A DNA stretch of 64,000 nt from an uncultured delta proteobacterium. GTDB taxonomy: Bacteria; Desulfobacterota; Binatia; UBA9968. A program made the translations under genes and the position numbers. The notes under the pieces were generated by a model, which saw only the letters and a list, made by a program, of their open reading frames with translations, was not told the DNA's origin and searched no databases. The stretch is taken from NCBI GenBank assembly GCA_963745035.1, contig CAVUVW010000006.1, forward strand, positions 24,006 to 88,005. The letters run 5' to 3'. Shown one piece after another: positions 4,256-19,969 of the stretch. The first letter of the stretch is position 1; each line of letters begins with the position of its first letter.

Positions 4256-7200
4256 TCAATGAAAATCCCGGCTGCGCGTGCCGGCAGGCTTGAGATCCAG
4301 GCGCGGCTCCCAAAGCGTTTCGGCGACCAGGTGCACCACGCCGTCTTCGGCTTGCAGCTTGCCGCTGATGCCGAGAAAGCCCGTGGTTTTGGCCAGCACC
4401 GGGTAGCGCTGGAAAACGCTCTCCCACACGACGACGTTGACGAAACCGGTTTCGTCTTCGAGTGTCATGAATACGACTCCGCCCGCCGTGCCCGGCCGCT
4501 GCCGGCAGATCACCAACCCCGCATAACGAACTTTGGCGCCGTCTTGCATCGACGCCACCGTCCGCGCATCAGGCAAGTCCTGACGCACCAGGCCGGCGCG
4601 CAGCGGTGCCAGCGGATGGCGCCTCGTGCTGTGCGACGTCCGGCGATAGTCCCAACCGACTTCTTCGAAGTCGGTGAGCGCGGCGAATGCCGGCGGCGCC
4701 GCGCGCGCCGGCAGCGACAGGGGTTCTTTTTGCGCGCGCGCCAGGCGGCGCACATCCCAAAGCGCCGCGCGCCGGTCAACGCGCAGGCTCTCGAAGGCCC
4801 CCGCCTCCGCCAGCGCGCCGAGAGCCCCTTCATCCAAGCCCGTGCGGCGGGCGAAATCCTCGAGCGACGCGAACGGCGCCCATTCACGCGCACGCGCGAT
4901 CTTCTTCCAATCTTTTTCACCGAAGCCTTTGACGTAGCGCAATCCCATGCGCACGGCGAACCGCTCCGCGCTCTCCGCGCACGGCTCCAGCGTGCAATCC
5001 CAATCACTGGTCTGCATGTCGACGCTGCGCATGACTATGCGATGACGCTTGGCGTCTTCGACGATGGTCGCCGGCGAGTAAAAACCCATCGGCTGAGCGT
5101 TCAACAGCGCGCAGGTGAACTCCGCTGGATAGTGGCATTTGAGCCAAGCTGTCGCGTAAGCGATGAGCGCGAAGCTCGCCGCGTGGCTTTCCGGAAAGCC
5201 GTACTCGCCGAAGCCGCGGATTTGCTCGAAGACCCGCTCGGCGAATTCCACAGCGATGCCTTTGGTCCGCATGCGCGTGATCAGCCGTTCACGGTGGCGC
5301 TCCATCCTGCCGGTGCGGTGCCATGCCGCCATGTCGCGGCGAAGCTGGTCAGCCTCGCCGGGCGTGTAATCCGCCACTACCATCGCAAGGCGCATCACTT
5401 GCTCCTGGAACAGCGGCACGCCGAGGGTTCTTTCGAGCACGGGCTTCAACAAATCATGGGGATAATCCACTTTTTCTTTGCCCTGGCGACGGCGCAAATA
5501 CGGGTGCACCATGCCACCGGTGATCGGCCCGGGGCGGACGATGCTGATCTCGATCACCAGATCGTAGAAGTTTCGCGGCTTAAGCCGCGGCAGCATCGCC
5601 ATCTGGGCACGGCTCTCGATCTGAAACACGCCGATCGTGTCGCTTTTGCAGATCATATCGTAAGTGGCTTCATCGTCACCGGGAATCGTTGCCATGGAAA
5701 GATCGATGCCGCGCTGCTCGCGCAGGAGCTTGAAGCAAAGATCGAGCTGGGTAAGCCCGCCTAGGCCGAGCAAATCGACTTTGAACAGGCCGAGATCTTC
5801 GACGTCGTTTTTATCCCATTGGATGACCGTGCGCTCTTCCATGGTCGCGTTTTCGATGGGAACCAGCTCGGGAATCGGTTCATGGCCGAGCAAAAAGCCG
5901 CCCGGATGGATCGATAGATGACGCGGAAAATCGAGGATCTCATTGGTGAGCTGGAGTAAATGCTCATGCAGGCCGCGGGAAGCATTGAGACCGATTTGTT
6001 CGAGCATTTGCGGGCGGACGTTTTCGTAGGACGAAAGAAATTTGGCGGCACGATCGAGAGCAGTCTCCGACAAGCCTAAAGCTTTGCCGATATCGCGCAG
6101 CGCCGAACGCGCGCGGTAGCGCACCACATTGGCCACCAGCGCGGCGCGGTCGCGGCCGTATTTCTGATAAACGTGCTGGATGACTTCCTCGCGCCGGTCA
6201 TGCTCGATATCGAGATCGATATCCGGCGGCTCGGCGCGCTCTTTCGAGATAAAACGCTCGAACAAACCTCCGATGAGTTTTGGATTAACGGCCGTGATGC
6301 CCAAGCAGTAGCAAACAACGGAGTTCGCCGCGGAACCGCGTCCCTGGCAGAGAATCGCGTTGGCATGGCAAAACTCGACGATCTCTCGCATGGTGAGAAA
6401 ATATCCGGGGTAGTCGAGCGATTCGATGATCTCGAGCTCTTTTTCGATCTGCGCGGCGATGGAATCGGGAATCCCGTCAGGGTAGCGCCGCCGCGCGCCG
6501 TCGAAAGTCTGCTGGCGCAGCCATTCCATCGAGCTCATGCCGTTGGGCAACTGTTCCGACGGATAACGATAGCGGATCTCGCTCAATGAAAAATTGCAAC
6601 GCTCGGCGATTTCCAAAGTCCGCCCGACGGCGGCCGGGTCGTCGGCGAAAAGTTGGGCGAACGCATAGGGCGGCTTGAGCCCGTATTCGGCGTTTGGCTT
6701 CAGCTTTCGCCCGCAGGAGGCGACCGGAATACCGTAGCGTATCGCCGTCAAGACATCCTGCAGGCGCCGGCGCGCCGGGTGGTGATAAAGGATTTCATTG
6801 ACTGCCGCGATTGGGAAACCAAAGCGCTTAGCGCGCTCGCGCAGCCGCGCTTCGTCGATGATTTCATCTTCGCACCGGTGCCGGACGATCCTCCCGTAAA
6901 ACCGATCGCCAAACGCATCGCGAAGGTCGCCGACGATTTGATCCGGATGCATTGCATATCTGGCTGATCCGTTTTCGCCTTCCTGTCCGTCATTCCCGTG
7001 CAAACGGGAATCCGGGTTCGTTGTTCTTGATCCAAAAGCACCCGCCCCGACTTCCGTGTTCGCGGGAGTGACGAACCCTACTTCCCCACCCCACAGTGCA
7101 ATCAGCCCCGCCGCATGCGTGCAAACTTCCCCCCACGTGACGACGCTCTCGCCTTTCTCCGAGCGGAGCCGTCCTTTAGTCAATAGCCGGCAGAGATTAG

Positions 7201-7459
7201 CATAACCGCCGCGATCTTGGCTCAACAGCACAATCGTCGAACCATCGTCGATCGTGACCTGCGATCCAATGATAATTTTCATGCCGAGCTCACGTGCCTT
7301 AATATGCGCGCGCACGACGCCGTAAACTCCGTCGCGGTCCGTCAGCGCGATCGCCGGCAAGCCCAAGCGATGGGCTTCCTCGACTAACTCGTCGGGATGG
7401 CTGGCGCCTTCGAGAAAGGAGAAATTGCTCTTACACCAGAGCGGAACGTAAGAAAACAT
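4256..7459 (-). CDS. dnaE2: Error-prone DNA polymerase DnaE2 (ImuC)
   Basis: PHP N-terminus [50 protein letters not shown], and the C-terminal SRDFH typical of DnaE2. Confidence 0.97.
6988..7073. repeat. Palindromic REP/dRS3-like repeat inside dnaE2
   Basis: CGTCATTCCCGTGCAAACGGGAATCC...CGCGGGAGTGACG; same family as the intergenic copies at 30754 and 45477. Confidence 0.8.
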
Positions 7460-7527
7460 GAAAATAATAGAACCGACCACGAAAATAACAAGGAATTGGA
7501 TGCGTGACTGGCGAAGGGTAACCGAGA

Positions 7528-7647
7528 AGCTAACGTTAAGAGGGCATGATGCGGTTTATCTCGCTCGACAGTGTGGCGTGCGCGCGACTTAGACAAACAG
7601 CGCTGCAGGGGCAATGAGTTCCACTCCATTCCTTGGACGCGTTGGAC
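7528..7647 (-). other. Degenerate attC, last site of array 2
   Basis: AGCTAAC (7528) to GTTGGAC (7641-7647) with partial arm complementarity. Confidence 0.45.
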
Positions 7648-7894: not shown

Positions 7895-7980
7895 ACCCTC
7901 AGCGTGCCGGTTAAGCGCCGCACGCTACCGCATTTGCCTTGGTACTCTATCCATCACGGTCCACCGCAACCGGATTAGGT
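7895..7980 (-). other. Degenerate attC of the DUF1772 cassette
   Basis: The gene's TAA lies in GGACCTAAT, complementary to ATTAGGTCC at the cassette start (8432-8440); CCGGTT/AACCGG arms. Confidence 0.5.
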
Positions 7981-8415
7981 CCAAACCAAAAGCCAGACAT
8001 ACAACCCTGTGGCACCCATGCTCAACAGCGTGCGCACCGCATGAAGACTACCCCATCGCTTCAGCAGCGCCCGCGTTTCCGCCGAGCCGAGTTCGAGATC
8101 CGTGGCGAGGAGCCGGTGATTCGTCGGCATGATTACGATAAAGGTAAAGGGCACGACCGCCCCGATCAGTACCGCCGCCACGAGCCACCCAGCGCTACCG
8201 CCCGTAAACCAGACAGCCATACCGGCGATAGAGCTTACTACTGCCAGAGGAGCTTGCATCCACGTGGCGCGCCGGTAACTCGGCGCCCACTGCAATGCGG
8301 CGACACGCGTTTCAAGGAGCATGCGCGCCGGATGCTCGGCAACGTTGATGTACAGGGCAGCACCCGCGAACAACGACGCACAAATGACTGCCAAGAACTC
8401 GAACGCTTCAGACAC
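7975..8415 (-). CDS. DUF1772 / anthrone oxygenase-like membrane protein (cassette)
   Basis: Hydrophobic protein with LFAGAALYINVAEHPAR, PFTFIVIMPTNHRL and W..LHAVRT motifs. Confidence 0.8.
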   Translation of the reverse strand: MSEAFEFLAVICASLFAGAALYINVAEHPARMLLETRVAALQWAPSYRRATWMQAPLAVVSSIAGMAVWFTGGSAGWLVAAVLIGAVVPFTFIVIMPTNHRLLATDLELGSAETRALLKRWGSLHAVRTLLSMGATGLYVWLLVWT

Positions 8416-8615
8416 CGCTGTGTCTCCGTCGGGACCTAATGTTTGAAAACGAGGCGACTGTAATGGATCACCGGGACTATGGAGCCTAAAAGGTCATTCT
8501 CGGGCCGAGCACACGAAAGAGCCGAAGATCGAAAAGGCGACCCCGGCTCGGCTCGCCGCCGTTGGCTAACTCCATGGCGCTAATCCTATGGTGACGAAGG
8601 TGATATGAAGATCTC

Positions 8616-9851
8616 TCAGCGGACCGGCTGCGTGCGATCCACGGCCGCGCCGCGCAAGATGACCATAGAGATGCGTCGCGTGTTGGTGATGTCGTCCAGC
8701 GGGTTTGCGTCGAGCACGATGAAGTCCGCGCTCTTGCCGGCTTGCAATGTGCCCGTGTCGGCGAGCTGCAGGAATTCGGCTGAATTACGCGTCGCCGCTA
8801 CGATCACCTGCATCGGCGTCATCCCAGCGCTCACCATGTCCAACATCTCTTCGTGCGGCCCCCACGGCCGGTTGCCGTCGGTGCCGAGCGTGATGCGCAC
8901 GCCCGCCGCGTTCAGTTTCGCCAGATTGCGCGCCTGAATCCCGAAGAGGGCCTGCGCCTTTGGCCGGTCCGTGTTGGCCGCTTCGAGCTTCTTCAACTCA
9001 TCGGCCGGAAGGCCCGCCCGCAGCCAGCTTAGATCCACCTTCACGCCGCGATCCGGCAGGTTCGGCGTGAGCACCAGATTCGGCCGCTGCTTGAACATGG
9101 CCACCAGTTCGTCGTCGATGTCCTTGTCGCGAATGCCGTGCGCGAACGCGTCGAGTCCGGCACGGATGAGGCCCTTCGCATCCTCGAGCTCGAAGATATG
9201 CGCCGACACCCGCAGTCCTCGCTTGTGCGCATCGGCGATAATGGCGCTATAGATTTCCGGGGTCATCTTCTGATACTTGCCGTCCCTTGCATCGACCCAG
9301 ATCTTGACGATGTCGACCTTGTTCGCCGCCAACTCCTCCACCGCCTTGCGCCCCTCCGCCGCGCTCTTGACCCAGTAGGGCACGGTGGTGCGCCCCGGCT
9401 CGGGCATCGTGATGCCGCGCCCTGCGCTACGAAACCGCGCGACGCCGGGAATCGTCTCGTTGCGCATATCGAGCAGTCCATAACCGTCGGTGCCCATGCT
9501 CAGCGCGGCACTCACGCCGTAGTAGGCGCGCATTTTTAAGTCCTGTATCAGCGCTTCGCGGGTCTCGCTGAGATGGACGTGAGTGTCGATGATCATCGGC
9601 ATCACGGTCTTGCCGGCGAGGTTCACGCGCGCGGCGCCGGCGGGCACGCGGACGTCGGCGGCCGCGCCGGCCTGGGCGATCTTGGCGCCGTCCACGATCA
9701 ATGTCGCCTTCTCAATCACCCGTCCGTCCCCCACGATCAATCGCGCGCCTTCGTACGCCGTGACGGACCGTTCGGAGGTCGGAACCGCGCATCCGCCAAG
9801 GAAACCAAGAGCAACGATTGCCGCGACTACAACTACATTCACTCGGTGCAT
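8616..9851 (-). CDS. Amidohydrolase family lipoprotein (cassette)
   Basis: IDTHVH, AH...H, LGTDGN and GKSADFIVLDANPLDDI motifs; LGGC lipobox. Confidence 0.85.
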   Translation of the reverse strand: MHRVNVVVVAAIVALGFLGGCAVPTSERSVTAYEGARLIVGDGRVIEKATLIVDGAKIAQAGAAADVRVPAGAARVNLAGKTVMPMIIDTHVHLSETREALIQDLKMRAYYGVSAALSMGTDGYGLLDMRNETIPGVARFRSAGRGITMPEPGRTTVPYWVKSAAEGRKAVEELAANKVDIVKIWVDARDGKYQKMTPEIYSAIIADAHKRGLRVSAHIFELEDAKGLIRAGLDAFAHGIRDKDIDDELVAMFKQRPNLVLTPNLPDRGVKVDLSWLRAGLPADELKKLEAANTDRPKAQALFGIQARNLAKLNAAGVRITLGTDGNRPWGPHEEMLDMVSAGMTPMQVIVAATRNSAEFLQLADTGTLQAGKSADFIVLDANPLDDITNTRRISMVILRGAAVDRTQPVR

Positions 9852-9874: not shown

Positions 9875-9934
9875 TTCTAACGCCTGAACTAACCCGAGCC
9901 GCGGAGCGGTGTCGGCTTGAAAGAATTGTTAGAC
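9875..9934 (-). other. attC
   Basis: TTCTAAC...GTTAGAC, 60 bp, with imperfect AGCCG/CGGCT arms. Confidence 0.7.
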
Positions 9935-9964
9935 AACAACTGTTCACCTCCTGTATCGGACATT

Positions 9965-10050
9965 GCATAACGCTATGCCGCTGAGCCGCTGTTACATTCG
10001 AAATCACCCGTCATGGACTCTTGCCGTCGGCTCCAGCGGCGTTGTTAGAC
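9965..10050 (-). other. attC
   Basis: GCATAAC...GTTAGAC; arms GCCGCTGAGCCG and CGGCTCCAGCGGC with an extrahelical base. Confidence 0.85.
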
Positions 10051-10070
10051 GGTTTACCCAAACGCGTAAG

Positions 10071-10580
10071 CTATGAAGCCGCCATAACTTCCCCACAATT
10101 CTTGCAAGTCCGAAATTCCCTATTTTCGAAGAACCGCTGATAAGCCTTAGAAACAGGATCGTCTCGATAGTCTTTCACGATGAACGTTTCCTCATGGAGC
10201 AAAGCATCACACTTCTGGCAAAACCAATGGAAACGATCGATTTCGCCTTCATGCCGCTTGCGCTCCAGCACGAAAGTGAAGGTGTCGGGCGCACGACGGG
10301 GTGAGTGTGGTACGCCGGCTGGAATGCGAATGACCGATCCTTCGGGAATGGCAGCAATCTCTTCTCGACCTGACGCCGTCCGATAATGCAGGCGCATCTC
10401 TCCCCTAATCATGTATATGACTTCATCGCTTGGGTTCGTGTGAAACTCGGAGCGGTACTCCCGTCCTCGAGCGACAAAAGCGACGGACTCAGACTCCTGC
10501 CACTGGACGCCGACCGCCTTGCCGCTCTCGGTGAGCTGCCGATATTGATCCGCTAGGTTAACGATTGAGATCAGAGACAT
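10071..10580 (-). CDS. 3-hydroxyanthranilate 3,4-dioxygenase-like cupin (cassette)
   Basis: R.EFH.NPSDE and IPAGVPHSPRR motifs, with rubredoxin-like CQKC and CKNC. Confidence 0.85.
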   Translation of the reverse strand: MSLISIVNLADQYRQLTESGKAVGVQWQESESVAFVARGREYRSEFHTNPSDEVIYMIRGEMRLHYRTASGREEIAAIPEGSVIRIPAGVPHSPRRAPDTFTFVLERKRHEGEIDRFHWFCQKCDALLHEETFIVKDYRDDPVSKAYQRFFENREFRTCKNCGEVMAAS

Positions 10581-10630
10581 AAGATACCTCCATTCTAAGG
10601 TGAGACCGTAGGCGTCTACGACGAAATGCC

Positions 10631-10690
10631 GTCTAACGTTTTGGGTGAGAGGCGCGGTCCGCCGCGTCGGTCTCAACCCAATGGTTAGAC
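10631..10690 (-). other. attC
   Basis: GTCTAAC...GTTAGAC; arms TTGGGTGAGA..GCGG and CCGCGTCGGTCTCAACCCAA. Confidence 0.9.
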
Positions 10691-10758
10691 TCGCATTGCA
10701 TTACCCCGGAAGAGTGAGCAATGTGCATACGACCTCCTCGTGTCTTCACATCGAACAG

Positions 10759-11508
10759 TCACTTCCGCGGAGTGCGATTTTCTGGCGCTACGTGGACGCC
10801 TCGCCAGCCAGAGTCGTTGATTGCGCGCTGCACTAACCCCGAGGCCTTGGCCTCTTCGATGAACTCGCTGATGTAGGCAAGCCTCCCGGGCTGCCCCTTC
10901 GGGACGGCCATCGCTGTAAAGTTCGCTCCAAAACAGTCCTCCAGCACCCGCGAGCCGGACAATCTGGTGGAGAACTCTAGAAGCGCTGGACGGGTCGATG
11001 CCCACGCGTCCACATCTTCGGTACGCAGCAGGTCGAAAGCAATGTCGGGAGTCTCCGCGCTGATCAGTTCGGCATGTTTCCGTATGCGGTTCAGACACAA
11101 CGTCGAGGCGTGGTTGCGTACAACCGCGATACGGGCGTCGGGGCAGTCGGCATCGGCGACGTTTTGAATTGAGGAGTCGACCGCCACCAAATAGGTAAAA
11201 TCAAATTGAAGAACCGCGGGTGAGAAATCTATCTCGGAAGTCTGAGATTCATCCATCGCTCCAAACCCCACATCACACGCGCCGGCCTTGAGGCCTTCCA
11301 TCGCCCTAGGAGGAGTTGGATATTCGACCGGCAAGAACTCAACCCCGATCCGCGCTGCTAGCGCGCGAGCGAGTTCGATCGTCCACCCGCGCAACTCGCC
11401 GGTTGTCGGATCCTTCGCATATTGCGGTGGATACAACGCGACCCGGACTATGCCGGCCCGCACGAGATCCGCGATTCTCGGGTCGGGCACCTGTTGAACA
11501 TCGGTCAC
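10759..11508 (-). CDS. Amino-acid-type solute-binding protein, SBP_bac_3-like (cassette)
   Basis: GELRGWTIELARALAARIGV and IDFSPAVL motifs; no signal peptide. Confidence 0.8.
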   Translation of the reverse strand: MTDVQQVPDPRIADLVRAGIVRVALYPPQYAKDPTTGELRGWTIELARALAARIGVEFLPVEYPTPPRAMEGLKAGACDVGFGAMDESQTSEIDFSPAVLQFDFTYLVAVDSSIQNVADADCPDARIAVVRNHASTLCLNRIRKHAELISAETPDIAFDLLRTEDVDAWASTRPALLEFSTRLSGSRVLEDCFGANFTAMAVPKGQPGRLAYISEFIEEAKASGLVQRAINDSGWRGVHVAPENRTPRK

Positions 11509-11547
11509 AACACCCTCGTTTCCGCGTTCGTACTCACTCCTGCTAGC

Positions 11548-11670
11548 GTCTAACTATTAAGTGAGCTGCCATACGCACCGACAATTACTGGTCGGCTTAT
11601 CCCAGCGACTGCTCGGACAACAAAAGGTCAAATCGCTAACAATATCCATCCGCTAACATTACGTTGTCAA
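11548..11670 (-). other. Putative attI-2
   Basis: GTTAGAC core with no attC hairpin. Shares the 16-mer TCTAACTATTAAGTGA with attI-1. CGCTAACA direct repeats at 11634 and 11651; TTGACA at 11670-11665. Confidence 0.7.
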
Positions 11671-11763
11671 CAATAAGTCTTCCGCCAAAAGCCGACCGGG
11701 ACAGCGGCCCTATTTCCTCAACGATCGGCGGCTTATCTCCGCCATCGAGATTCTCTTCTATAG

Positions 11764-11790
11764 CCGGCAGGACTGTTGACGCCTCTACCG
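11764..11790 (-). pseudogene. Relic of an integron integrase 3' end
   Basis: Encodes GRGVNSPAG versus GRGVRSPAD in IntI; 12-bp identity with 18110-18121. Confidence 0.55.
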
Positions 11791-11805
11791 ACCTACCCTC
11801 CTCGG

Positions 11806-12085
11806 TTATCCGACAAACCGTAGCGATTGCTTATTAGGGAACGCTTTCGGCAATTTATCTTCTCGTTTCCGGTCGAACCGCGCCTGAAGATCGAGCCAGT
11901 ACCGCTCGGACATGCCGAAGTAGTGCGCGAGGCGATGCGCGATGTCGGCGGTGATCGGGCGTTGGCCCTCGACGATCTCGTAGATGCGGCGGACCGGCAC
12001 GCCGATGTCCCTTGCGAGATGCCAGACGCTGATGCCGCGCGGGAGCGAGAAACTCTTCCAACAAGATTCTGCCGGGATGTATCAT
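11806..12085 (-). CDS. higA: HigA-family antitoxin (XRE HTH), one frameshift
   Basis: Two frames give [12 protein letters not shown] and [40 protein letters not shown]. Confidence 0.8.
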
Positions 12086-12577
12086 TGGAAATCGTCCTTA
12101 ACTTTCTGGTTCAAGACGTTCAAATCGTTCAAGCAGTTCAAATCGTTTCGGAAGAAGCCGAAGAGATCGGAACTTTTGGGACGATTTGTTGCGGTATATT
12201 TTGATCCTTTCATGCCGCTGCTTTTCAAATATTCGATCAGATTACTGATCATGATCGATAAGCGCCGGAAGGACTTGCTTGCGGCGTCACAATCTTTCGG
12301 CGCCATATAAGATTGATCCAGAGCCACGTAAAGCTGCGAACGAACTTCCCCGCACGATGCTTTGGCGACATAGAGAAACTGAATAAATTCTTGATTACCA
12401 CCCCGCTCGAATCCTTCCGCTATGTTCGACATAATGGAGACTGCTGCCCGCCGTATTTGATCCCGCAGACCGAAATCTTTCGAGAATTTTGAGTCTCCTG
12501 TCAGTTGATAAATTCCTCGCGTCAAGGCGCGGGCATCTTTCCAAATTTCCAGATCTTCAAAATTTTTTCACTTGCAT
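12082..12577 (-). CDS. Four-helix-bundle protein (23S rRNA IVP family), homopolymer frameshift near start
   Basis: [36 protein letters not shown] and [12 protein letters not shown] motifs. Confidence 0.9.
12108..12147. repeat. 9-nt-period GTTCAA/TTGAAC repeat tract
   Basis: GTTCAAGAC-GTTCAAATC-GTTCAAGCA-GTTCAAATC; related tracts at 12592-12633, 12915-12941 and 19259-19343. Confidence 0.75.
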
Positions 12578-12639
12578 TGTTAGTTTCCTCCTTAAACGAT
12601 TTGAACTTTTTGAACGGCTTGAACGATTTGAACCCCTCG

Positions 12640-14249
12640 TTACTCAATCGCTCCCTGCCAAAACCACCTTCTTCTCACCCGGTCGTAATACAGCCAGAGG
12701 AGATCGCCGGCGCGGGTTTCGGCGTAATAGTATTCGCGCTGAATCTCGCGATTCCACCAGCCGCCGGAAAAAACATACGGGCCGGTGAGTTTGTCGATGC
12801 TGCCGTATTTGGGGCCGAGCATGAGCCAGCCGTCTTCGTGCGAGTGATAAGGCCCGCCGTGGAGGCGCCGCGGCTTGGCAAAGACCCGGCGCACTAACGT
12901 ATTCGGAGTGGACTCGTTCAAGCCGTTCAAATCGTTCAACCGCTTGCGGAGCCGGCCCTGAGCCCTTCGACTTCGCTCAAGATAAACTCCGTCGAAGGGT
13001 TCAACACGTTTTTGGGGAGTTTGACGCGGCTCACGGGCTCCCAAACAAAGCGCGCTTCGGGAAGATGGCCGTCGATGAGTTTGGCCCAGACGACGGAGTG
13101 TTCGCCGAACTCGGCGCGCAGGCGGGCGAGTGCGCGGTTGGCCGCGTCGAGATCGCGGCTCGGCCCTTCGACTTGGTCACTCTGTTCGGCGAACAGGCGC
13201 AGCTGCTCGCTGGTGGCGGCGCAGGTTTCCGCGCCAAGCTCGATTTCGCTCACGCCCGCGGCCACTTGCAGCGACTCCAAACGCAGACGGATCAAATCCA
13301 GGATCTGGCTGGCATCGAGAGTCGGAACCGCGGCGCGGAGCGACTCTCTGAGCCAGTCGCCATGGTCGATCAGCAAAGACAGCCGGATCGCCACCACGGC
13401 TTGATGGCGCGCCGCCAGAGTCGCAAGCAGCGGATGCAACAATTGCTTGATGAGAAACAGCAGCCGCGTGCTGTTGTTTTCGGCATCGTCGAGAATTTGT
13501 TTTTCCACGGCGGGCTCGTCGGGCGCCTGGGGTTCGAGCGGCGTCCAGAGATCGCCGGCGGCGAGGCGATGAAGCCGGTGCGCTTCCTTGCCGAAGCGCT
13601 CGCGCAATCCGCCCGGCGGAAGCGCGAGCAAGTCGCCGACGGTTTTGATGCCGAGCTGGAAAAGCGTGTCGCGAAATTTGGGGTCAATATGCAAACGGTT
13701 AAGCGGAATCTTCCTCGCGGCGGCGTGCTCATCGGCGGGATTGAGAAAAACCGTAACGTTCTTTTTCGCCTTGGCCACGGCGTAGCTGCCAAAGCGCGTG
13801 AAGCCGACCGCGAGGCTCGCGGCAAATCCCTGAGCTCTGAGATCTCTGTGAATGGCGTAGGCCCATTTTTCCGCCGAGGCATAGAGGCGCCGCAAGCCGG
13901 CGCCGTTGAGCCAAAAGACGCCGGGCTCGTCCGCCGCAGGCTCGACTTCGGGCGTAAAGCTCATGAAGCGCTGGGTCAGTTCGCCCACGGCTTTTTTTAT
14001 TTCCGCCGGCGGCACTGCGCCGGCGCGCAGCGCCGAAGCCAGAGAAAAGGCGGCGGCGTAGCGCAAGCCGGGCAACACGCCCTGCTGCCGGGCCTTTTCG
14101 TTGACCCAGAGAACCACTCCCTGCGGCTTGTCTTCAGCTACCACCGCCGCTGGATAAGCGCTCCACTCGGGATGGCGCCGCAGCAGGAGCTGAAGAGGAA
14201 AGGCCGGCAGATCAACACAGGCCAGCCGGCCCGGTGTAGAGCTTTTCAT
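12640..14249 (-). CDS. imuB: ImuB, inactive Y-family polymerase-like protein; frameshift near 12945 in a repeat-derived linker
   Basis: RLACVDLPAFPLQ, FTPEVEP, LARLRAEFG, and the C-terminal GPY..SGGWW...REYY...LWLYYD motif. Confidence 0.9.
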
Positions 14250-14808
14250 AATGCCATGTCGGGCCACGCCGTTTGTCCTTGAGCACGCGCAAAGCGCAGG
14301 CGAAGCGATTGTCTGCCGTCCGTTTCTTCTCGGCATGAACGCGCAGCGAAACCAACGAGCCCAAAGAAAATGCTGCGCTGCTTTTATCGGTGAGGCAAAC
14401 CAAAGCGGCGTGATGGCGCTGCGCCAAACCGGTCAAGCGGGTCTGCAGCGGCATGGGAATATCGGCGGCGCCGAGATCGAGCACGACCAGGCCGAAGCCG
14501 CCGGAGCGCAAAAGTTTTTCGCCGGCGCGCGGGATGCTCTGGCGTTCATTGAGACGCACGACCACGAGCGCCGCCAGATCAACGCCGCAGCGCTCCGCAT
14601 CGGGCGGATAGAAAGAAGTTTCCGAAGAAGTCACCCAGGCTACCGGCTCGCCACGCTTGTGGGCTTCGCGGACCAAGTCGAAAGCGATGGTCAGCGCCGC
14701 CGACCCGGTAGAGCTCGATATCTCCACCAGCCGCCCGGCGAGATTTCCGAGCACCCACGGCGTCGGTGAACCAGCGGGATGAAGTTTTTGCGCGGAAAAT
14801 AAGATCAT
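14212..14808 (-). CDS. imuA: ImuA / RecA-like protein
   Basis: GRLVEIS, FYPPD...GVDL and LLRSGGFGLVVLD motifs; overlaps the imuB start. Confidence 0.85.
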   Translation of the reverse strand: MILFSAQKLHPAGSPTPWVLGNLAGRLVEISSSTGSAALTIAFDLVREAHKRGEPVAWVTSSETSFYPPDAERCGVDLAALVVVRLNERQSIPRAGEKLLRSGGFGLVVLDLGAADIPMPLQTRLTGLAQRHHAALVCLTDKSSAAFSLGSLVSLRVHAEKKRTADNRFACALRVLKDKRRGPTWHYEKLYTGPAGLC

Positions 14809-14939
14809 GGACAGGATCTCCGTGAACTGGACATGCGCGGAGAGCGCGATCGACAGCTTCAGGAGGGATTCCTTCAGCTACTGCCCGGCAAGTATCGTCG
14901 TATTTGAAAGATGCAGAAACGAAGGTAAGAGGATCAATT

Positions 14940-15056
14940 ATCTAACGCCCGCGTGGACCGGCCCGCACGCGCTACCAAACGCCGCGCGCGCATAATCTCT
15001 CCCGCACGCTCAGCGCGCTAAATTGTTCACGGTCTGCTCCAACGCGCGTAGAGGCG
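14940..15056 (-). other. Degenerate attC, last site of array 1
   Basis: ATCTAACGCCCGCGTGGA...TCCAACGCGCGTAGAGGC; the R'' box is decayed. Confidence 0.6.
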
Positions 15057-15073
15057 CTCAATCGAGTGGCCAT

Positions 15074-15451
15074 TCAATCAAGGAACTTCCACGATGCCGC
15101 ACCGTCGAGGTGCCGGATCCGCACTCCGGCAAGAGCAGAAGGCTCGAAGTTGACCGCGTTCACTGCAATGGTCGTGTTGCGGCGTTTCTTCCGATACGCA
15201 TAGTGGGTGACGCAACCACATTTCTTGCATCGATAATAAACGCGAATCTTCCGGTTCCATGAATATTTCGATAGGCCGCCCTTGGGAGCTTCAATTTTAA
15301 CCGAACTCGCAGCGTAGTAAGCCCAGAGCGCGCCATAGCGGCGGCAGATCGAACAATTGCAGCTCGTTAAAGTGCGCGATAGCCGTCGAACGTAAATCCG
15401 AATCGCGCCACAGTGACACGTGGCCGCAAGCGCTGCGTTGCGGTGATCCAT
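15074..15451 (-). CDS. GFA/CENP-V family Zn protein (cassette)
   Basis: CHCGAI, CNCSICRRYG and CKKCG motifs. Confidence 0.9.
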   Translation of the reverse strand: MDHRNAALAATCHCGAIRIYVRRLSRTLTSCNCSICRRYGALWAYYAASSVKIEAPKGGLSKYSWNRKIRVYYRCKKCGCVTHYAYRKKRRNTTIAVNAVNFEPSALAGVRIRHLDGAASWKFLD

Positions 15452-15454
15452 AGC

Positions 15455-15517
15455 GCCTAACCGGATTGAGCTCAGCCGCCGCGCTTTTCAGCGGTCGGCT
15501 GCAGCGGCTTGTTCGGC
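15455..15517 (-). other. attC
   Basis: GCCTAAC...GTTCGGC; arms GCTCAGCCGCCGC and GCGGTCGGCTGCAGC with two extrahelical bases. Confidence 0.9.
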
Positions 15518-15589
15518 CTGCCTTACCCCGTGGCATAGGTTGGAGTTGACTCACCGGGACCTTTTCATCCTCCAACATGACGCCCTTGA

Positions 15590-16468
15590 TCATGCGCGGG
15601 TCAATACGAAGTCGTAGTCCATGGTGTGGAACGGGCGATCCATCTGGCGGCCGTCAGGCGCCTTACCGGGCTGATGCCGCGGGAAGTCTGCGATCAGCCC
15701 GTCCCGTACCGAAAAGGCAGCGTCCCGGTCGAGGTACTCACTGCCGCGCACGCAGATTTGCGTCACCAGGGTGTCGTGGCCATCGGCCTCGATCATGAAG
15801 TGAACGTGCGCCGGCCGCCAGCCCCCGTTCGAGGTATACTTGACCAGGTCGCCCATCCCCCCGTCATTCGGGACTGGATAGCCGATGGGGACGACCGTCC
15901 AGAACGAATAGCGACCGTCCGGCTCGCTCTTCAATTGCCCCCGCGTCCGCATTCCGTCCTTGGCCAGGTCACCCTGCACGTCGTACAGTCCCCGCCCGTC
16001 CGATTGCCAGACGTTGATGGTCGCGTTTGGAACAGGCCGACGATCGATCGCGAGAATACGCCCCGAGACGTAGAGAGGCTCGCCCGCGACGTCTTCGGCG
16101 ATGTCGGCGCCGTTCGCGAAAGAGGGTGCGTTCGGAAGGAAGAACGGTCCGAGCACGCCCGGCAGCGTCGCGCCTTCCGGCTTCGGTTGCGATATCTGGA
16201 TCACCAGGGTTTCGAGCCCGAGCATCTCGGCGAGCGCGAGGAATTCCTGCCTGCCGCCCTTGCAGTAACCGCCCAGCTGGACCAGATAGTTCATCGCGAA
16301 GAGGTACTCGTCGCCGGTCAGCCGCACGTCGCGCGCAAAGCCATGCAGATGCTTGATCAGGCTCAAGATGATCTCGCGCAGGCGGGGGCCCGTCGTAGCT
16401 TGGTAGCGGGTTAGCGCTTCCTTCGTGATCGCCTCTTCGGCAGCGGCATTTTTCCCTTCCGTAGTCAT
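15590..16468 (-). CDS. Intradiol ring-cleavage dioxygenase, hydroxyquinol/catechol 1,2-type (cassette)
   Basis: PRLREII..LIKHLHGFARDV, LGPFF, VWQSD..G.YD and WRPAHVHF motifs. Confidence 0.9.
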   Translation of the reverse strand: MTTEGKNAAAEEAITKEALTRYQATTGPRLREIILSLIKHLHGFARDVRLTGDEYLFAMNYLVQLGGYCKGGRQEFLALAEMLGLETLVIQISQPKPEGATLPGVLGPFFLPNAPSFANGADIAEDVAGEPLYVSGRILAIDRRPVPNATINVWQSDGRGLYDVQGDLAKDGMRTRGQLKSEPDGRYSFWTVVPIGYPVPNDGGMGDLVKYTSNGGWRPAHVHFMIEADGHDTLVTQICVRGSEYLDRDAAFSVRDGLIADFPRHQPGKAPDGRQMDRPFHTMDYDFVLTRA

Positions 16469-16608
16469 GAACGTGTCCTCCGATTGTTGGTGACGGTTTT
16501 CAGGGCCGCTTCCACCTCACTCAACTCCTCGCCGTAAAAGTGGTTCTCAACGGCCGCCTAGTTCGGCATCTGGTTGTCTCCATACTTGCTTTCCGTGGCA
16601 GGTTTTCG

Positions 16609-16678
16609 GGCGAACGCTAGCGGTCACCGGACGGAGCGAGCAACGCGAGTCCCGATCCGGTGCACTGCATTGTTAGCC
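16609..16678 (-). other. attC
   Basis: GGCGAAC...GTTAGCC; TCACCGGA/TCCGGTGCA arms; the gene's TAA lies in the R'' box. Confidence 0.85.
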
Positions 16679-17245
16679 AGAGACGCCAAGCACCCCCAGG
16701 ACCTCGTCCCAGTGGCTGCAGAACGCCACACCCACCGGGCAATCATCGATCTGTGTTCGCCCGTGTTGCAGCCAGACACGCCGCAATCCTTCCAGCCGTA
16801 CGTCGCGGAGGTGTCGAACATCATCGTCGATAAGGACATGAGCGCCGATCTGGTGACACACCTGCTCCTTGCTGGAGTCGTGCGACGTTATGACCTCCCT
16901 GATGGAAAGCGCAAGACCCATTCGCTCGAGCCACTCTCGAGCGTAGGCAATGCGATGCAGCCGTCTGTTAGTAACGACGAACACATCTCCAATGACTGTG
17001 AGGGCACGAAGCGCGTTTGCAGCGCCGGGGACTTCCGCTGCTGCCAGGGTGCTCTCACGTTCGTACACGTAGTCGTTCATTTCCTCATATGGACTTTTCC
17101 CAATGAGAGGCACGCAATCAGTGCGATTGCATTGCCACGGCTCTACGTCCCGGCCCACATGTGTCTTGATCCACTTCATCGCCTCGGCATTGGTATTCGC
17201 AATCGTGCCGTCGTAATCTACCGCGATGATCAGTCTTGTACTCAT
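16673..17245 (-). CDS. HAD-superfamily hydrolase, 5'(3')-nucleotidase-like (cassette)
   Basis: IAVDYDGTIA, VVTNR and LIDD motifs. Confidence 0.8.
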   Translation of the reverse strand: MSTRLIIAVDYDGTIANTNAEAMKWIKTHVGRDVEPWQCNRTDCVPLIGKSPYEEMNDYVYERESTLAAAEVPGAANALRALTVIGDVFVVTNRRLHRIAYAREWLERMGLALSIREVITSHDSSKEQVCHQIGAHVLIDDDVRHLRDVRLEGLRRVWLQHGRTQIDDCPVGVAFCSHWDEVLGVLGVSG

Positions 17246-17258
17246 CCAGGCCCTTTCT

Positions 17259-17348
17259 GGCTAACGTCGTGGTGAACGGCGGGCCGCAGCGACGGTCTTT
17301 GCGTTGGCACGGTGGTTCGCGGCCCGTCCGTTCCACCTAGAGTTAGAG
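17259..17348 (-). other. attC
   Basis: GGCTAAC...GTTAGAG; arms GGTGAACGGCGGGCCGC and GCGGCCCGTCCGTTCCACC with two extrahelical bases. Confidence 0.92.
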
Positions 17349-17358
17349 CGCAAAAGGC

Positions 17359-17847
17359 TCAATGCGCCTCCTTGGCGAGGCGGTCATCACGCTCGCGCAG
17401 CAGCCAGTAGACCACGCCGAGCACAAGGGTTGCTCCAGCCAGCGCCGCAATGGTGCTTGCGGCGGTGGCGCTGGAATCGAGAATGACGAACTTGCGACTC
17501 AACGCAATGAGCGCGATGAGCACCACGGTCTTGACCTGGATGATGCTCGAGCGCCGAAGAGCAACGCTAACAATCGAATGCTTGAATTCCATGGCGATGA
17601 GCAGCGTCATGATCATGCCAAAGAGCGCCTGAAAGACGTCATGTTCCAGTGGATCTATCGCGCCGCTAAGCAACAGCGGCACGATGCGGATGACCAGCTG
17701 CACGAGCGCTAGGGCGATGACCACTGAGATCACGAGACTCAGAACGATCGCAACAATCTGCTCGAAGCGCTCGTAAACGGACATGATCGGCCAATGCTCA
17801 CGTGTTTCCGCAAAGAACTTCCGCGGCGCGTGGCGTTTGTTGTCCAT
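17359..17847 (-). CDS. PsiE-family membrane protein (first cassette of array 1)
   Basis: About four TM segments; FGMIMTLLIAMEF and LIALSRKFVILD motifs. Confidence 0.8.
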   Translation of the reverse strand: MDNKRHAPRKFFAETREHWPIMSVYERFEQIVAIVLSLVISVVIALALVQLVIRIVPLLLSGAIDPLEHDVFQALFGMIMTLLIAMEFKHSIVSVALRRSSIIQVKTVVLIALIALSRKFVILDSSATAASTIAALAGATLVLGVVYWLLRERDDRLAKEAH

Positions 17848-17871
17848 TTGTCGCTCCGTTCTTGCCTTGCG

Positions 17872-17992
17872 CTCTAACTATTAAGTGAACGAATTAGACT
17901 AACCTTGTGTTGGCCGCTTATTCCCAAAGCATGTTTCACTGAAAAATATCAAAATTACCAGCTTTATCGTCCACTTTTCTGTTGCAAGTCAA
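17872..17992 (-). other. Putative attI-1, downstream of intI
   Basis: GTTAGAGC core complementary to the R'' GCTCTAAC of the first attC; no hairpin; AT-rich; TTGACT at 17992-17987. Confidence 0.75.
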
Positions 17993-18084
17993 GGTTCTTA
18001 TGATCAGCAATTGCGGCCAGTTTGACCGCCTATCACTCTATTGGCCCGCAGCCTATTCCGGAGACCACAGGGTAGTTCAAGTCT

Positions 18085-19142
18085 TTAGAGACGGTCTGCC
18101 GGGCTTCGAACGCCTCTACCGCCGCGATCAATACATGCGTATAAATCATGGTCGTGCTGACATCGCGGTGACCGAGCAACTCCTGCACCGTCCGGATATC
18201 GTACCCATCCTCCAATAAATGCGTCGCGAAAGAGTGTCGTAAAGAATGACATGTGGCTGGTTTTGGTATCCCGGCATTGCGAACAGCCTCGCGCACTGCT
18301 TTTTGTAGCACCGATTCATGGAGATGATGCCGGTACTGCAATCCGGTGTGGCGGTCAATGTAGTATCTTGTCGCAGGAAACACCCATTGCCATACCCATT
18401 CTCGGTTAGCGTTTGGATATTTCCTATCCAGCGCGTTCGGCAACACAACTCGCCCTAAATTATTCTCAACATCATACTGGTGTTGTCGTTTGCCATTGTT
18501 GAGATGCTTAGTGAGTGGTTCTTTCACAGCTGTAGGAAGCATCGTGTAACGGTCCTTGTCTCCCTTTCCAGCGCGTATAACGATTTGGTTTTGCGAAAAA
18601 TCAATGTCTTTTACCCTGAGCCGGCAACATTCCATGAGCCGAAGGCCGGCGCCGTAAAGCAATGTCGCCATGATTTTTTCGGTTCCTGTAAGCTGATTCA
18701 GTAGGCTTTGGATCTCCGCACGGGTCAATACGACCGGCAACCGTAGAGCTTTTTTCGCGCGTACTACGCCGTTCACATAACCGATCTCTTTTTCTAATAC
18801 CTGGTGATAAAGAAACAGCAATGCGTTCAGGGCTTGGTTCTGCGTGGAACCGCTCACCTTTGATTCGGCTGCCAAATTAGAAAGGAAACGCGCTATTTCC
18901 GGTTCCGCCATTTCTGCAGGGTGCCGTTTATTGTGGAAAAAGATGAACCGTCTGATCCAATGGACATAGCTGCCTTCAGTCTTGGGACTGTAGTGTCGGG
19001 TGCGGATTGCCCGGCGCACTTGATCGAGCAATTTCGGCTTCATCGCCGTGGCTATCGACCGAACGCCGGCTGCGGCGTTCAATCCACCGTCAATCACCGC
19101 GAGCGTACGGGTTGGCTGCCTGGGTGCGTCAATGTTCATCAT
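18085..19142 (-). CDS. intI: Integron integrase; 1-nt frameshift near the C-terminus
   Basis: [38 protein letters not shown], the IntI-specific [30 protein letters not shown] and TTMIYTHV. Restoring one A gives the ending [15 protein letters not shown]. Confidence 0.96.
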
Positions 19143-19359
19143 CCTAACCGCTCTCCTTGTCATCCGCGTCTCGCAGCACCCCCTCTAGGGTTGACGAGGA
19201 ATGACGGAACGAAGCTTGGCACAACGCTGGATAAGCTTCCGCCCGTACTGCAGCGCAGTGTTCAAACCGTTCAAGAGTTCAAGGTTCAACGCTGGAGAAA
19301 CAAAAACAGTCTAGAGAACTTTGAACTTTCAACCTTGAACTTTTTAGTCCCCCGCCCAC

Positions 19360-19969
19360 TTAGAATTTTCTCAGCAATCCCACCACCCGCCCCACGATGC
19401 GGAACTCCCCTTCGGAGACAGTGATCGGCGGGTACTTTTCGTTCTCCGCCTTGAGCGTGACGACGCCGTCTTTCTCGAAGAACCGCTTGAGCGTCGCCTC
19501 GCCCTCGATCACCGCGCACACGATCTCGCCGTTCTCCGCACTGCCCTGCTGCTTCACGATTACCCGGTCGCCGTCGAGGATACCGGCGCCGATCATGCTG
19601 TCGCCTTTGACCTGCAGCGCGAACCTTTTTCCGCTGCCGATGTCGTCGGGAATGGTGATGGTGCCTTCGAAATTTTCTTCGTTTAGGAGCGGCTTGCCGG
19701 CGGCGATCCTGCCCAGAACCGGCAGCCTGGCGGGTCGGGCTAATGGCCGCTTGGCCCAAAGCGTTGACGATCTCGATGGCGCGCTTGCCGACGCGGCGGA
19801 TATAGCCCTTTTTCTCCAAGGCCTTCAGATGATCGGAGACGCCGTTAGTCGAAGTGATCTTGAACTGCCTGCCGATCTCGTGCATCGACGGTGCGAAGCC
19901 CTTCTCGCGAATGGTTTTGAGCAGAAAATCGTAGATCGCTTTTTGCCGGGAGGTCAGCTCGGGAAGCAT
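19360..19969 (-). CDS. lexA: SOS repressor LexA (frameshift near 19730)
   Basis: [12 protein letters not shown]...[18 protein letters not shown], then LGRIAAG cleavage site, GDSM catalytic Ser and TLKR catalytic Lys. Confidence 0.93.

Follow-up and report, generated by a model that had tools for sequence, protein, structure and literature searches.

Clusters of attC sites lacking an integron integrase (CALIN) have been described (Cury et al. 2016, PMC4889954); in the passages of that study drawn on here, their origin by integrase loss was proposed, intI pseudogenes were found near 15 of 279 CALIN, and attI was stated to be unknown for most integrons and therefore not searchable. Integrase-less arrays are common, but because attI is unknown outside a few integron classes, their origin has mostly been guessed. 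Several integrons per genome and intI pseudogenes were reported by Nemergut et al. 2008 (PMC2426708) and Cambray et al. 2011 (PMC3108266), and within the cited parts of these three papers integrase loss, intI pseudogenes, multiple integrons and integrase-less arrays are well described. In addition, SOS control of integron integrases through a LexA box in the intI promoter is set out in the relevant part of Cambray et al. 2011 (PMC3108266), and an excerpted source on class 1 and 2 mobile integrons describes Delta-attI-type cassettes and attI1-gene-attI1 units that are excised and inserted by IntI1 (PMC12901181). Here we analyzed a stretch of 64,000 nucleotides (nt), hereafter the window, from the assembly GCA_963745035.1 (7.43 Mb, 28 contigs, 92.6% complete) of an uncultured soil bacterium of the Binatia. 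The window contains two attI-like sites, site A and site B, in one locus with lexA, imuA, imuB and dnaE2. Site A is very probably, in both identity and origin, the attI site and Pc promoter left by a chromosomal integron after deletion of its integrase gene.

Results

Structure of site A

The first-pass annotation, made from the letters of the window alone, had pointed to a 16-mer shared by two positions at the crossover of the first cassette. This observation was correct: TCTAACTATTAAGTGA occurs exactly only at 11549-11564 and 17873-17888 of the window, both on the plus strand; allowing as many as 2 mismatches adds no further match, and the mean over 100 shuffles was 0.00 matches. Read on the minus strand, the strand of the cassettes, the word is TCACTTAATAG/TTAGA (the slash marks the predicted crossover), and its end, GTTAGA(C/G), is R-box-like. 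At site B the predicted G/TT crossover lies between 17878 and 17877. Both sites lead into cassettes, since attC-folding sites lie behind each. The same layout adjoins an intact integrase gene in Candidatus Binatia contig L017, where the core is kept as TCACTTAATAGTT, indicating that the word marks the border between platform and cassettes. The parts of site A are as follows.

11549-11812, minus strand: attI-A, whole site including the relic
11549..11564, minus strand: attI-A core TCACTTAATAG/TTAGA, exact at both sites, predicted crossover between 11554 and 11553
11590..11603, minus strand: proximal repeat GGGATAAGCCGACC, putative IntI-binding site, most conserved block after the core in 25 copies
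11641..11670, minus strand: Pc-like promoter TTGACA-18 nt-GATATT, directed into the cassettes, 10 of 12 positions matching
11704..11739, minus strand: two distal repeats, AAATAGGGCCGC and GAGATAAGCCGCC, upstream of the -35 hexamer
11765..11812, minus strand: putative intI 3'-end relic, reading D N R G G (stop) V G R G V N S P A G; statistics support 11765-11790, the rest is suggestive

Motif conservation was computed over 25 module copies from this genome and others. Conservation reaches at least 95% in the core and ceases past TTAG, and homology between the genomic copies ends 4-9 nt beyond G/TT, as in an attI core. The proximal repeat, the -35 hexamer (as GTTGACAAG) and the -10 hexamer (as GGATATTG) are each conserved to at least 95% as well, and a block CGTTAGGGAGATAA.CCGCC in the region of the distal repeats is conserved across copies; outside the hexamers, GGGATAAGCCGACC and the core, the remaining module sequence is variable. 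Counterparts of the proximal repeat are GGGAATAAGCGGCC at site B and GGGATAGGCGGCC in L017, and the distal pair aligns with GATAACCCGCC and AAAAGCCGCC in two same-genus relatives (G036 and G007) and with GATAGGCCGCC and GATAGACTGCGGGCC in L017. These three conserved ATAAGCCGNC-type repeats are candidate integrase-binding sites. Within 11400-12200, TTGACA-18 nt-GATATT is the sole promoter-like site, a predicted Pc. The TTGAC reported earlier at about 110 bp from each crossover was measured at 110-116 nt, as TTGACA at 11670-11665 (site A) and TTGACT at 17993-17988 (site B) on the minus strand; at site B no promoter passed the rule of the tool. The layout common to site A, site B and L017 comprises three ATA(A/G)GC-type repeats, TTGAC about 112 nt from the crossover, and TCACTTAATAGTT. 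Judged by these motifs, site A has all defining parts of an integron platform except the integrase gene.

At site A, the intI sequence next to attI is a relic only. A second shared word, ACGCCTCTACCG, had been placed 225-230 bp away at both sites and read as the IntI C-terminus GRGV(N/R)SPA. It is indeed present at 11779-11790 and 18110-18121, but slightly farther out, at 230 and 237 nt from the start of the respective 16-mer. The reverse complement of its region encodes GRGVNSPA at site A and GRGVRSPA at site B, as had been stated, but at site B these residues fall in a frame other than that of the open intI reading frame (18033-19163). Over 26 nt (11765-11790), 23 bases of the relic agree with the terminal codons of the G007 intI, a score reached by 0 of 2000 shuffles; the score against the G036 gene end was reached by 2 of 2000 and that against the window's own intI by 9 of 2000. 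With tblastn, NRGG and RGVQSPA, separated by a gap, were aligned with NRGG(stop)VGRGVNSPA of the relic across a 9-nt insertion at E = 6, which alone is not significant. The alignment with the relatives' intI end continues unbroken from the relic into the attI module, and the relic carries N as in the G036/G007 type, not the R of site B. We therefore read it as a probable remnant of a deleted integrase gene, well supported over 26 nt and perhaps about 50 nt in all.

Site A in related genomes

The module was searched in 30 other genomes of the same genus, and 20 loci of relatives were examined. Note that these genomes and loci are kin, so that cases of integrase loss among them are not independent events. 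The site A module is present in 19 of the 30 genomes, with 1-5 matches each, and lies directly behind an intI 3' end in two of the 20 loci, G036 (L120) and G007 (L126), whose genes both end in ...YTHVLNRGGRGVNSPADRL(stop), with GRGVNSPADRL(stop) as the shared terminus. The G036 intI is frameshifted further upstream, and the G007 locus as fetched holds the C-terminal half only. In pairwise scoring, unrelated attI regions give a background of 54-58%, so that the global identities say little except for site A with G036 (77%) and site B with L017 (68%); sites A and B score 63%, sharing motif islands between which they are barely alignable.

On the minus strand of the window, the order is lexA, intI, site B, PsiE, NT5C, catechol dioxygenase, GFA, imuA, imuB, IVP, higA, and relic with site A, followed by SBP_bac_3, cupin, a cassette without an open reading frame (ORF), amidohydrolase, DUF1772, dnaE2, merR and mutS. 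This order was compared with the imuA loci of four same-genus genomes (G015, G014, G003 and G006) and two same-order genomes. Behind imuA-imuB-IVP, three of the four same-genus loci (G015, G014 and G006) have an intact intI with its own attI and cassettes. We take the origin of site A to be settled because these three relatives have an intact intI at exactly its place, and the relic match together with this synteny bears out the earlier proposal that a second intI-attI module had been reduced to its attI and a trace of the integrase. The fourth genome, G003, has imuA-imuB-IVP-higA, a longer relic (...TLI(stop)T..NRGGRGVNSPADHL(stop)) and the module, without intI. The window and G003 share IVP-higA-relic-attI, and the window lacks about 240 nt still present in G003. 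The first cassette at site A differs between the two, suggesting turnover after the loss, if the loss was one shared event. All four relatives carry dnaE2 on the contig and strand of imuA, 26-38 kb behind it; in the window, dnaE2 follows after only 4 kb. In the two same-order genomes, imuA-imuB-dnaE2 is followed by intI fragments.

An upstream platform was also recognized. Specifically, in G014 the string lexA-IVP-intI (intact)-attI stands about 14 kb before imuA; in G015, lexA and two further genes are followed by an intI remnant, attI, and toxin-antitoxin cassettes reaching imuA; and in G003, C-terminal intI fragments come after lexA. The G006 contig ends 3.4 kb ahead of imuA, which places its upstream platform outside the data. 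Integrases are kept at both platforms in G014, downstream in G015, upstream in the window and at neither in G003, and the downstream one of G006 is intact. The order lexA, imuA-imuB, dnaE2, with an integrase gene or relic between, is kept in the window and the four relatives, both platforms being assessable in three. As read from gene order, the genus layout is lexA-(IVP)-intI-attI-array-imuA-imuB-IVP-intI-attI-array-dnaE2; on the same reading, site A is the platform kept by the genus between imuB-IVP and dnaE2, and site B is that between lexA and imuA. Both platforms are co-oriented with the operon, and the integrase gene has the same direction as the cassettes. In G014 an IVP gene immediately precedes intI at both platforms, and the same holds for the downstream platform in G015 and in G006; this pairing looks non-random.

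In three loci, a tyrosine-recombinase gene was found to start about 145-175 nt past an attI crossover (L017:7164-9354, G018:C41:60314-61193 and G018:C9:5785-6676), and in L017 a gene for an IS91-type Y2 transposase comes after it. Such attI sites may be targets of an IS91-like element, or may capture one.

Copies across the genome

The 16-mer has 13 matches in the 7.43 Mb genome at up to 2 mismatches, 3 of them exact, against 4 for the backwards control. Ten of the 13 share an extended conserved upstream stretch. The proposal of one integrase with two platforms was thus too narrow, as there are about 13 or more sites in the genome; 11 of the 13 have an attI-like context. A module profile built from 7 copies found 10 near-full copies (7 by construction and 3 new) and 3 partial ones. 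The near-full copies, given as contig and position, are the following.

C10:18424
C14:612934
C11:148338
C17:1554
C26:81078
C6:35555 (site A)
C27:53000
C13:1121816
C14:1057872
C22:2319

The census of the genome comprises 10 near-full and 3 partial sites of the site A type, site B, and two sites of a third type. In pairwise blastn, homology between the copies extends from -230/-242 to +4/+9 around G/TT at 70-88% identity. An ORF on the cassette strand begins at most about 130 nt from the crossover in most of 12 copies of the site A type, and the products are diverse (luciferase-like monooxygenase, methyltransferase, bicupin, lipocalin-like protein and others). Downstream of the 16-mer, a clear attC hairpin with paired R boxes is present at 6 of the 13 sites (A, B, C11, C26, C27 and C19), and three further sites (C10, C14:612934 and C17) have attC-like hairpins with L boxes only; no attC hairpin was detected at the remaining four, one of which is near a contig end.

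Note that attC sites were called with our own hairpin criteria, which is a different method from the IntegronFinder model. Across the whole genome, a regular expression for the conserved right half of attC matched the reversed control more often than the genome itself, and a narrower hairpin scan returned 301 merged sites, compared with 1353 for the reversed control; because of these controls, no count of arrays is claimed. In MAFFT alignments of 4-9 attC sites the paired arms were out of register, and no attC covariance model was obtained.

A tblastn search for integrase remnants upstream of 15 copies returned only two matches, a relic on C22 (E = 1e-4) and, weakly, that at site A (E = 6). 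The C22 contig (7.5 kb; regions about 3244-3410 and 2319-2506) carries a longer remnant, VSTT-IHTHVLNRGGKQFSVSADKL, that matches the L017 IntI at this E value and lies about 150 nt upstream of a diverged core, TCACTTAGTAGTTAGG; a GFA cassette follows, and a second attI module is located 0.9 kb on. The two third-type sites, C21:136234 and C21:139612, read ...CAATATACG(T/A)GATCAGTTCA(C/A)TCAATAG/TTAG and resemble the attI behind the intact G006 intI and the upstream G014 intI; the window's genome has no integrase of that type.

In addition, a 72-nt element, GGATTGAACTGAATTCTCCATCAA...GAAGCGTCGTTCAGTTCAATCC, with 13-nt inverted ends was noticed, and its 5' half has 31 genomic copies, for instance at C11:128559-149356 (12 copies) and C13:1120292-1125713 (6 copies), with a spacing of about 1.2 kb. 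The element is placed 3-4 nt after attC R' boxes or right after stop codons. The attI module begins with the same sequence as the last 25 nt of the element, and the complete element stands directly before the module in C11 and C13. The idea that the element is an upstream remnant of a deleted intI was not supported, since its 5' half was not found near intI in seven loci of relatives.

The lexA-imuA-imuB-dnaE2 locus

The other features of the locus are listed below in their order on the minus strand.

19286..19969, minus strand: lexA, with N-terminal DNA-binding and S24 peptidase domains in two frames; Pfam finds only LexA_DNA_bind
18033..19163, minus strand: intI, frameshifted after YTHVL; canonical-frame stop at 18085-18087
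17873..18084, minus strand: attI-B, with core 17873-17888, GGGAATAAGCGGCC at 17911-17924, TTGACT at 17988-17993 and two distal GATAGGC-type repeats
14940..17872, minus strand: array B, with PsiE (attC 17259-17348), NT5C (attC 16609-16678), catechol dioxygenase (attC 15455-15517) and GFA; families from Pfam
14212-14808, minus strand: imuA (Pfam and NCBIfam)
12640-14336, minus strand: imuB, split into two frames near 12936-13044 (Pfam and NCBIfam)
12082..12525, minus strand: IVP gene, four-helix bundle (23S rRNA IVP; PF05635, TIGR02436), preceding the integrase position
11806..12085, minus strand: higA-type antitoxin gene between IVP and relic, frameshifted; TIGR02607 matches a 64-aa C-terminal ORF
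9875..11548, minus strand: array A, with SBP_bac_3 (10759-11508; attC 10631-10690), cupin/3-HAO (10071-10676; attC 9965-10050) and an ORF-less spacer (attC 9875-9934); families from Pfam
7975..9850, minus strand: amidohydrolase and DUF1772 genes (Pfam), between the last clear attC and dnaE2; cassette status uncertain
4256..7456, minus strand: dnaE2, error-prone polymerase (NF004225, 1357 bits), at the far end of array A

Thus lexA, imuA, imuB and dnaE2, assigned by Pfam and NCBIfam, form a co-oriented mutagenesis set in one locus. The attI site lies behind the intI 3' end, and the SBP_bac_3 gene starts 41 nt past the site A crossover. Five attC hairpins (17259-17348, 16609-16678, 15455-15517, 10631-10690 and 9875-9934) have paired R''/R' boxes and bulged bases, those of array A being GTCTAAC...GTTAGAC and GTCTAAC...GTTAGAA; in the sixth, 9965-10050, only the L boxes pair. 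Two attC sites are separated by just 30 nt (9935-9964), forming an ORF-less mini-cassette. No canonical attC fold was found at 8475-8570 or 7527-7600. At the end of array B, an R'-like GTTAGAT stands at 14940-14946, about 130 nt ahead of imuA, without a convincing attC fold (14809-14946); G003 likewise has a GFA gene immediately ahead of imuA.

Single-nucleotide frame breaks are present within 8 kb in lexA (19286-19969), imuB (12936-13044), higA (about 12040) and at the IVP start (about 12560). The region was aligned with metagenome contigs from four public runs (X1, X5, X6 and X8), one per study, and relatives or X8 contigs differ by single bases at or near these breaks. Specifically, lexA is intact and imuB continuous in G015, one X8 contig has an extra base behind 12945, the higA ortholog of G003 has one base fewer at the frameshift place, and an X8 contig is also one base short at 12044.

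Tandem 9-nt repeats on GTTCAA/TTGAAC were observed at 12106-12150, 12594-12634, 12904-12939 and 19248-19290. Across the genome, 179 arrays of this kind were counted, with 0 for the control pattern in reverse. They also occur upstream of the L017 intI and at deletion junctions beside the G003 and G015 integrase relics; one array sits in frame within the imuB reading frame, and the IVP gene is flanked by 41-nt inverted arms of these repeats, 85% complementary (12082-12634).

Site B and the remaining integrase gene

The intI gene behind lexA scores 445 bits on TIGR02249 (cut-off 265), matching profile positions 1-301 of 315. The match lacks positions 302-315, the canonical last 14 residues. Compared with L017, the gene is one base short directly after YTHVL, just past the catalytic tyrosine (window 18122-18135), so that the canonical tail falls out of frame and the ORF continues with 32 other residues. 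The surviving IntI on which the first-pass annotation relied is accordingly frameshifted in this assembly, and a whole-genome search found no second integron integrase in the assembly. The closest IntI in named genomes, that of L017, is 82% identical; its gene ends ...YTHVLNRGGRGVQSPADRLLRI(stop), and behind it stand two GGGATAG-type repeats, next TTGACT, then a third repeat and finally TCACTTAATAG/TTGAAC, a layout that attI-B matches.

A contig of run X5 has one extra base behind 18127, which gives the canonical frame, with 2 other differences in 374 nt, and the X6 contigs do not cover this place. The X1 and X8 contigs have the frameshifted form. Elsewhere, at 12044, 12094, 12169 and 12945, 1-nt indels distinguish X8 from the window, and X8 is therefore not a mere copy of it; X1 may be the source sample of the assembly. 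In-frame and frameshifted intI alleles thus both seem to exist in soils. Furthermore, one X1 contig matches the PsiE cassette up to 17878 and then continues in different sequence with a GCTGGTCAGC word like that of the G015 attI; this divergence at exactly the predicted site B crossover, seen in a single contig, fits cassette exchange. Three joints in X5 (17268 to 17874, skipping the PsiE cassette; 17900 to 18092; 12936 to 19260) were not used as evidence, as their sides are 21-27 nt, too short by the caution threshold of the tool, and two lie in repeats.

Discussion

The results argue that site A is very probably the head of an integron that lost its integrase gene. On this reading, the Pc promoter would still drive the first cassette or cassettes, here the SBP_bac_3 gene, and cassettes could be gained or lost at TCACTTAATAG/TT if an IntI were provided in trans. 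Such present-day use in trans is possible, and we put it forward tentatively, as somewhat short of probable.

Several points weigh against these proposals. For both sites the evidence is sequence comparison. In the part of the literature cited here, attI sites are generally recognised by their cognate integrase only (PMC2095811); sites A and B are of different attI types, and the relatives' integrase of the site A type is about 79% identical to the window IntI over the second half of the protein. The only intI of the genome is frameshifted in this assembly, and the X1 and X8 contigs agree with it. The conservation of motifs could come partly from shared ancestry, as the copies are kin, and the statistical support for the relic covers only 26 nt. 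In addition, the frame breaks in the neighbouring genes reflect either a decaying locus or assembly indel errors.

The alternative that survives best is that site A and its short array are an inert fossil of a dead integron, in which no recombination takes place now and the motifs have not yet decayed. We consider this a serious possibility, though not the probable one. The frameshift in the sole intI fits it, as do the frame breaks in several neighbouring genes and the shortness of array A (three clear attC, about 4 kb against 23-34 kb in relatives), and integrase decay is common in the cited parts of earlier surveys, where about one third of intI genes were pseudogenes (PMC2426708) and 43-46% were predicted to be inactive (PMC3108266). 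However, 25 copies with an overall identity of 70-88% keep the functional motifs at 95% or more, the window and G003 have different first cassettes despite the shared orphan layout, which suggests turnover if the loss was shared, and an in-frame intI allele exists in run X5.

A second alternative is that a unit of relic, Pc and attI, about 230-300 nt, was mobilised, for instance by IntI through attC x attI excision and re-insertion at attC, site A being one copy of a non-autonomous element. The window's genome does have 13 matches where the 30 other same-genus genomes have 0-5, the copies have a similar 5' limit, those on C11 and C13 lie within runs of repeat-delimited units, each right behind a 72-nt element, and IntI1 excises and inserts cassettes bounded by attI-type sites, according to the portion of the source cited (PMC12901181). 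This copy, however, sits in place, at the syntenic position of an intact intI with a flank shared with G003. The copies diverge by 12-30%, which argues against a recent burst, their 5' limit is blurred by divergence without a sharp junction, and no empty site was found, although no search aimed at empty sites was made. We regard this alternative as unlikely for site A.

It is very unlikely that site A is a recent duplication of the site B module followed by intI deletion. The identical 16-mer and 12-mer at both sites would suggest it, but the regions hardly align outside the motifs (63% against 77% for site A with G036), the relic reads GRGVN like G036/G007 and not GRGVR like site B, and the module profile reaches site B at just E = 0.13. 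Derivation of site A from site B is thus contradicted by its closer similarity to the G036 attI and by its conserved position in relatives. A generic genomic repeat or chance match unconnected to integrons, as the 13 genome-wide matches in a genome rich in other short repeats might suggest, is extremely improbable and already contradicted, since shuffles expect 0 matches, an attI-like context ending at G/TT surrounds 11 of the 13 copies (site B and 10 copies of the site A type), C21 and C22 hold the remaining two, a third-type site and a more diverged one, respectively, and the same sequence stands behind intI genes in three other genomes.

Having weighed these alternatives, we return to the reading of site A as an integron head without its integrase. 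Sites A and B are direct repeats 6,324 nt apart, which makes recombination between them, with deletion, geometrically possible, as the first-pass annotation had suggested; such an event would remove four cassettes, imuA, imuB, IVP and higA. A gene between two identical attI1 sites is excised very efficiently, according to the excerpt cited (PMC12901181). Here, the gene order kept across same-genus relatives argues that imuAB deletion is rare or selected against, and the difference in attI type between A and B also speaks against frequent excision. We further speculate that the double integron brackets imuA-imuB like a giant cassette, that the integrase-less attI-promoter unit is mobilisable, and that one integrase spreads and serves about a dozen such sites in trans, with cassette shuffling, expression and error-prone replication being coupled physically and through regulation; taken as a whole, this scenario is improbable.

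Since attI is recognisable here, an array can be seen headed by an orphan attI with its promoter, integrase loss can be traced across a genus in which both, one or none of the integrases are kept, and about a dozen orphan heads become visible in one genome. Whether one integrase serves many platforms in trans thereby becomes directly testable. The platforms in the lexA-imuA-imuB-dnaE2 string would join two variation-generating systems under DNA damage. A limited literature search at the level of titles and abstracts found no description of integrons in the imuA-imuB-dnaE2 locus, of integrons in Binatia, or of many orphan attI per genome; as far as this search reached, two integron platforms fixed in the lexA-imuA-imuB-dnaE2 string are not described.

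Comparison with known systems

Array A resembles CALIN in that it consists of attC-bounded cassettes, with three attC sites and no intI within 4 kb (the nearest is at 6.5 kb), and would be counted as one. Unlike CALIN, it is headed by a recognisable attI, a promoter and a putative integrase remnant, and the loss is placed by synteny. In the 'inverted' group of integrons, for example in Treponema denticola, intI points the same way as the cassettes. The present locus is alike in orientation, which is all that was compared, in that intI shares a strand with the cassettes and its 3' end is followed by attI; unlike these integrons, two platforms stand in tandem within one operon.

Like the genomes in the cited parts of PMC2426708 and PMC3108266, this genome has more than one platform, and integrases have decayed frequently by frameshift or deletion, differently among close relatives. 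Unlike what those parts describe, two platforms bracket imuA-imuB at fixed places in the four same-genus genomes and the window, and about a dozen more orphan attI are scattered over the genome. The DNA between two attI-type sites in direct order recalls the attI1-gene-attI1 units; whereas these are, in the excerpt cited (PMC12901181), short duplicated pieces beside resistance cassettes in mobile integrons, the sites here are full attI with promoters, 6.3 kb apart, chromosomal, and placed around imuAB and four cassettes. Finally, as in the SOS-controlled integrases of the cited portion of PMC3108266, the integrase is tied to the DNA-damage response; unlike the LexA-box control set out there, intI here lies physically in the lexA-imuA-imuB-dnaE2 string, directly behind lexA.

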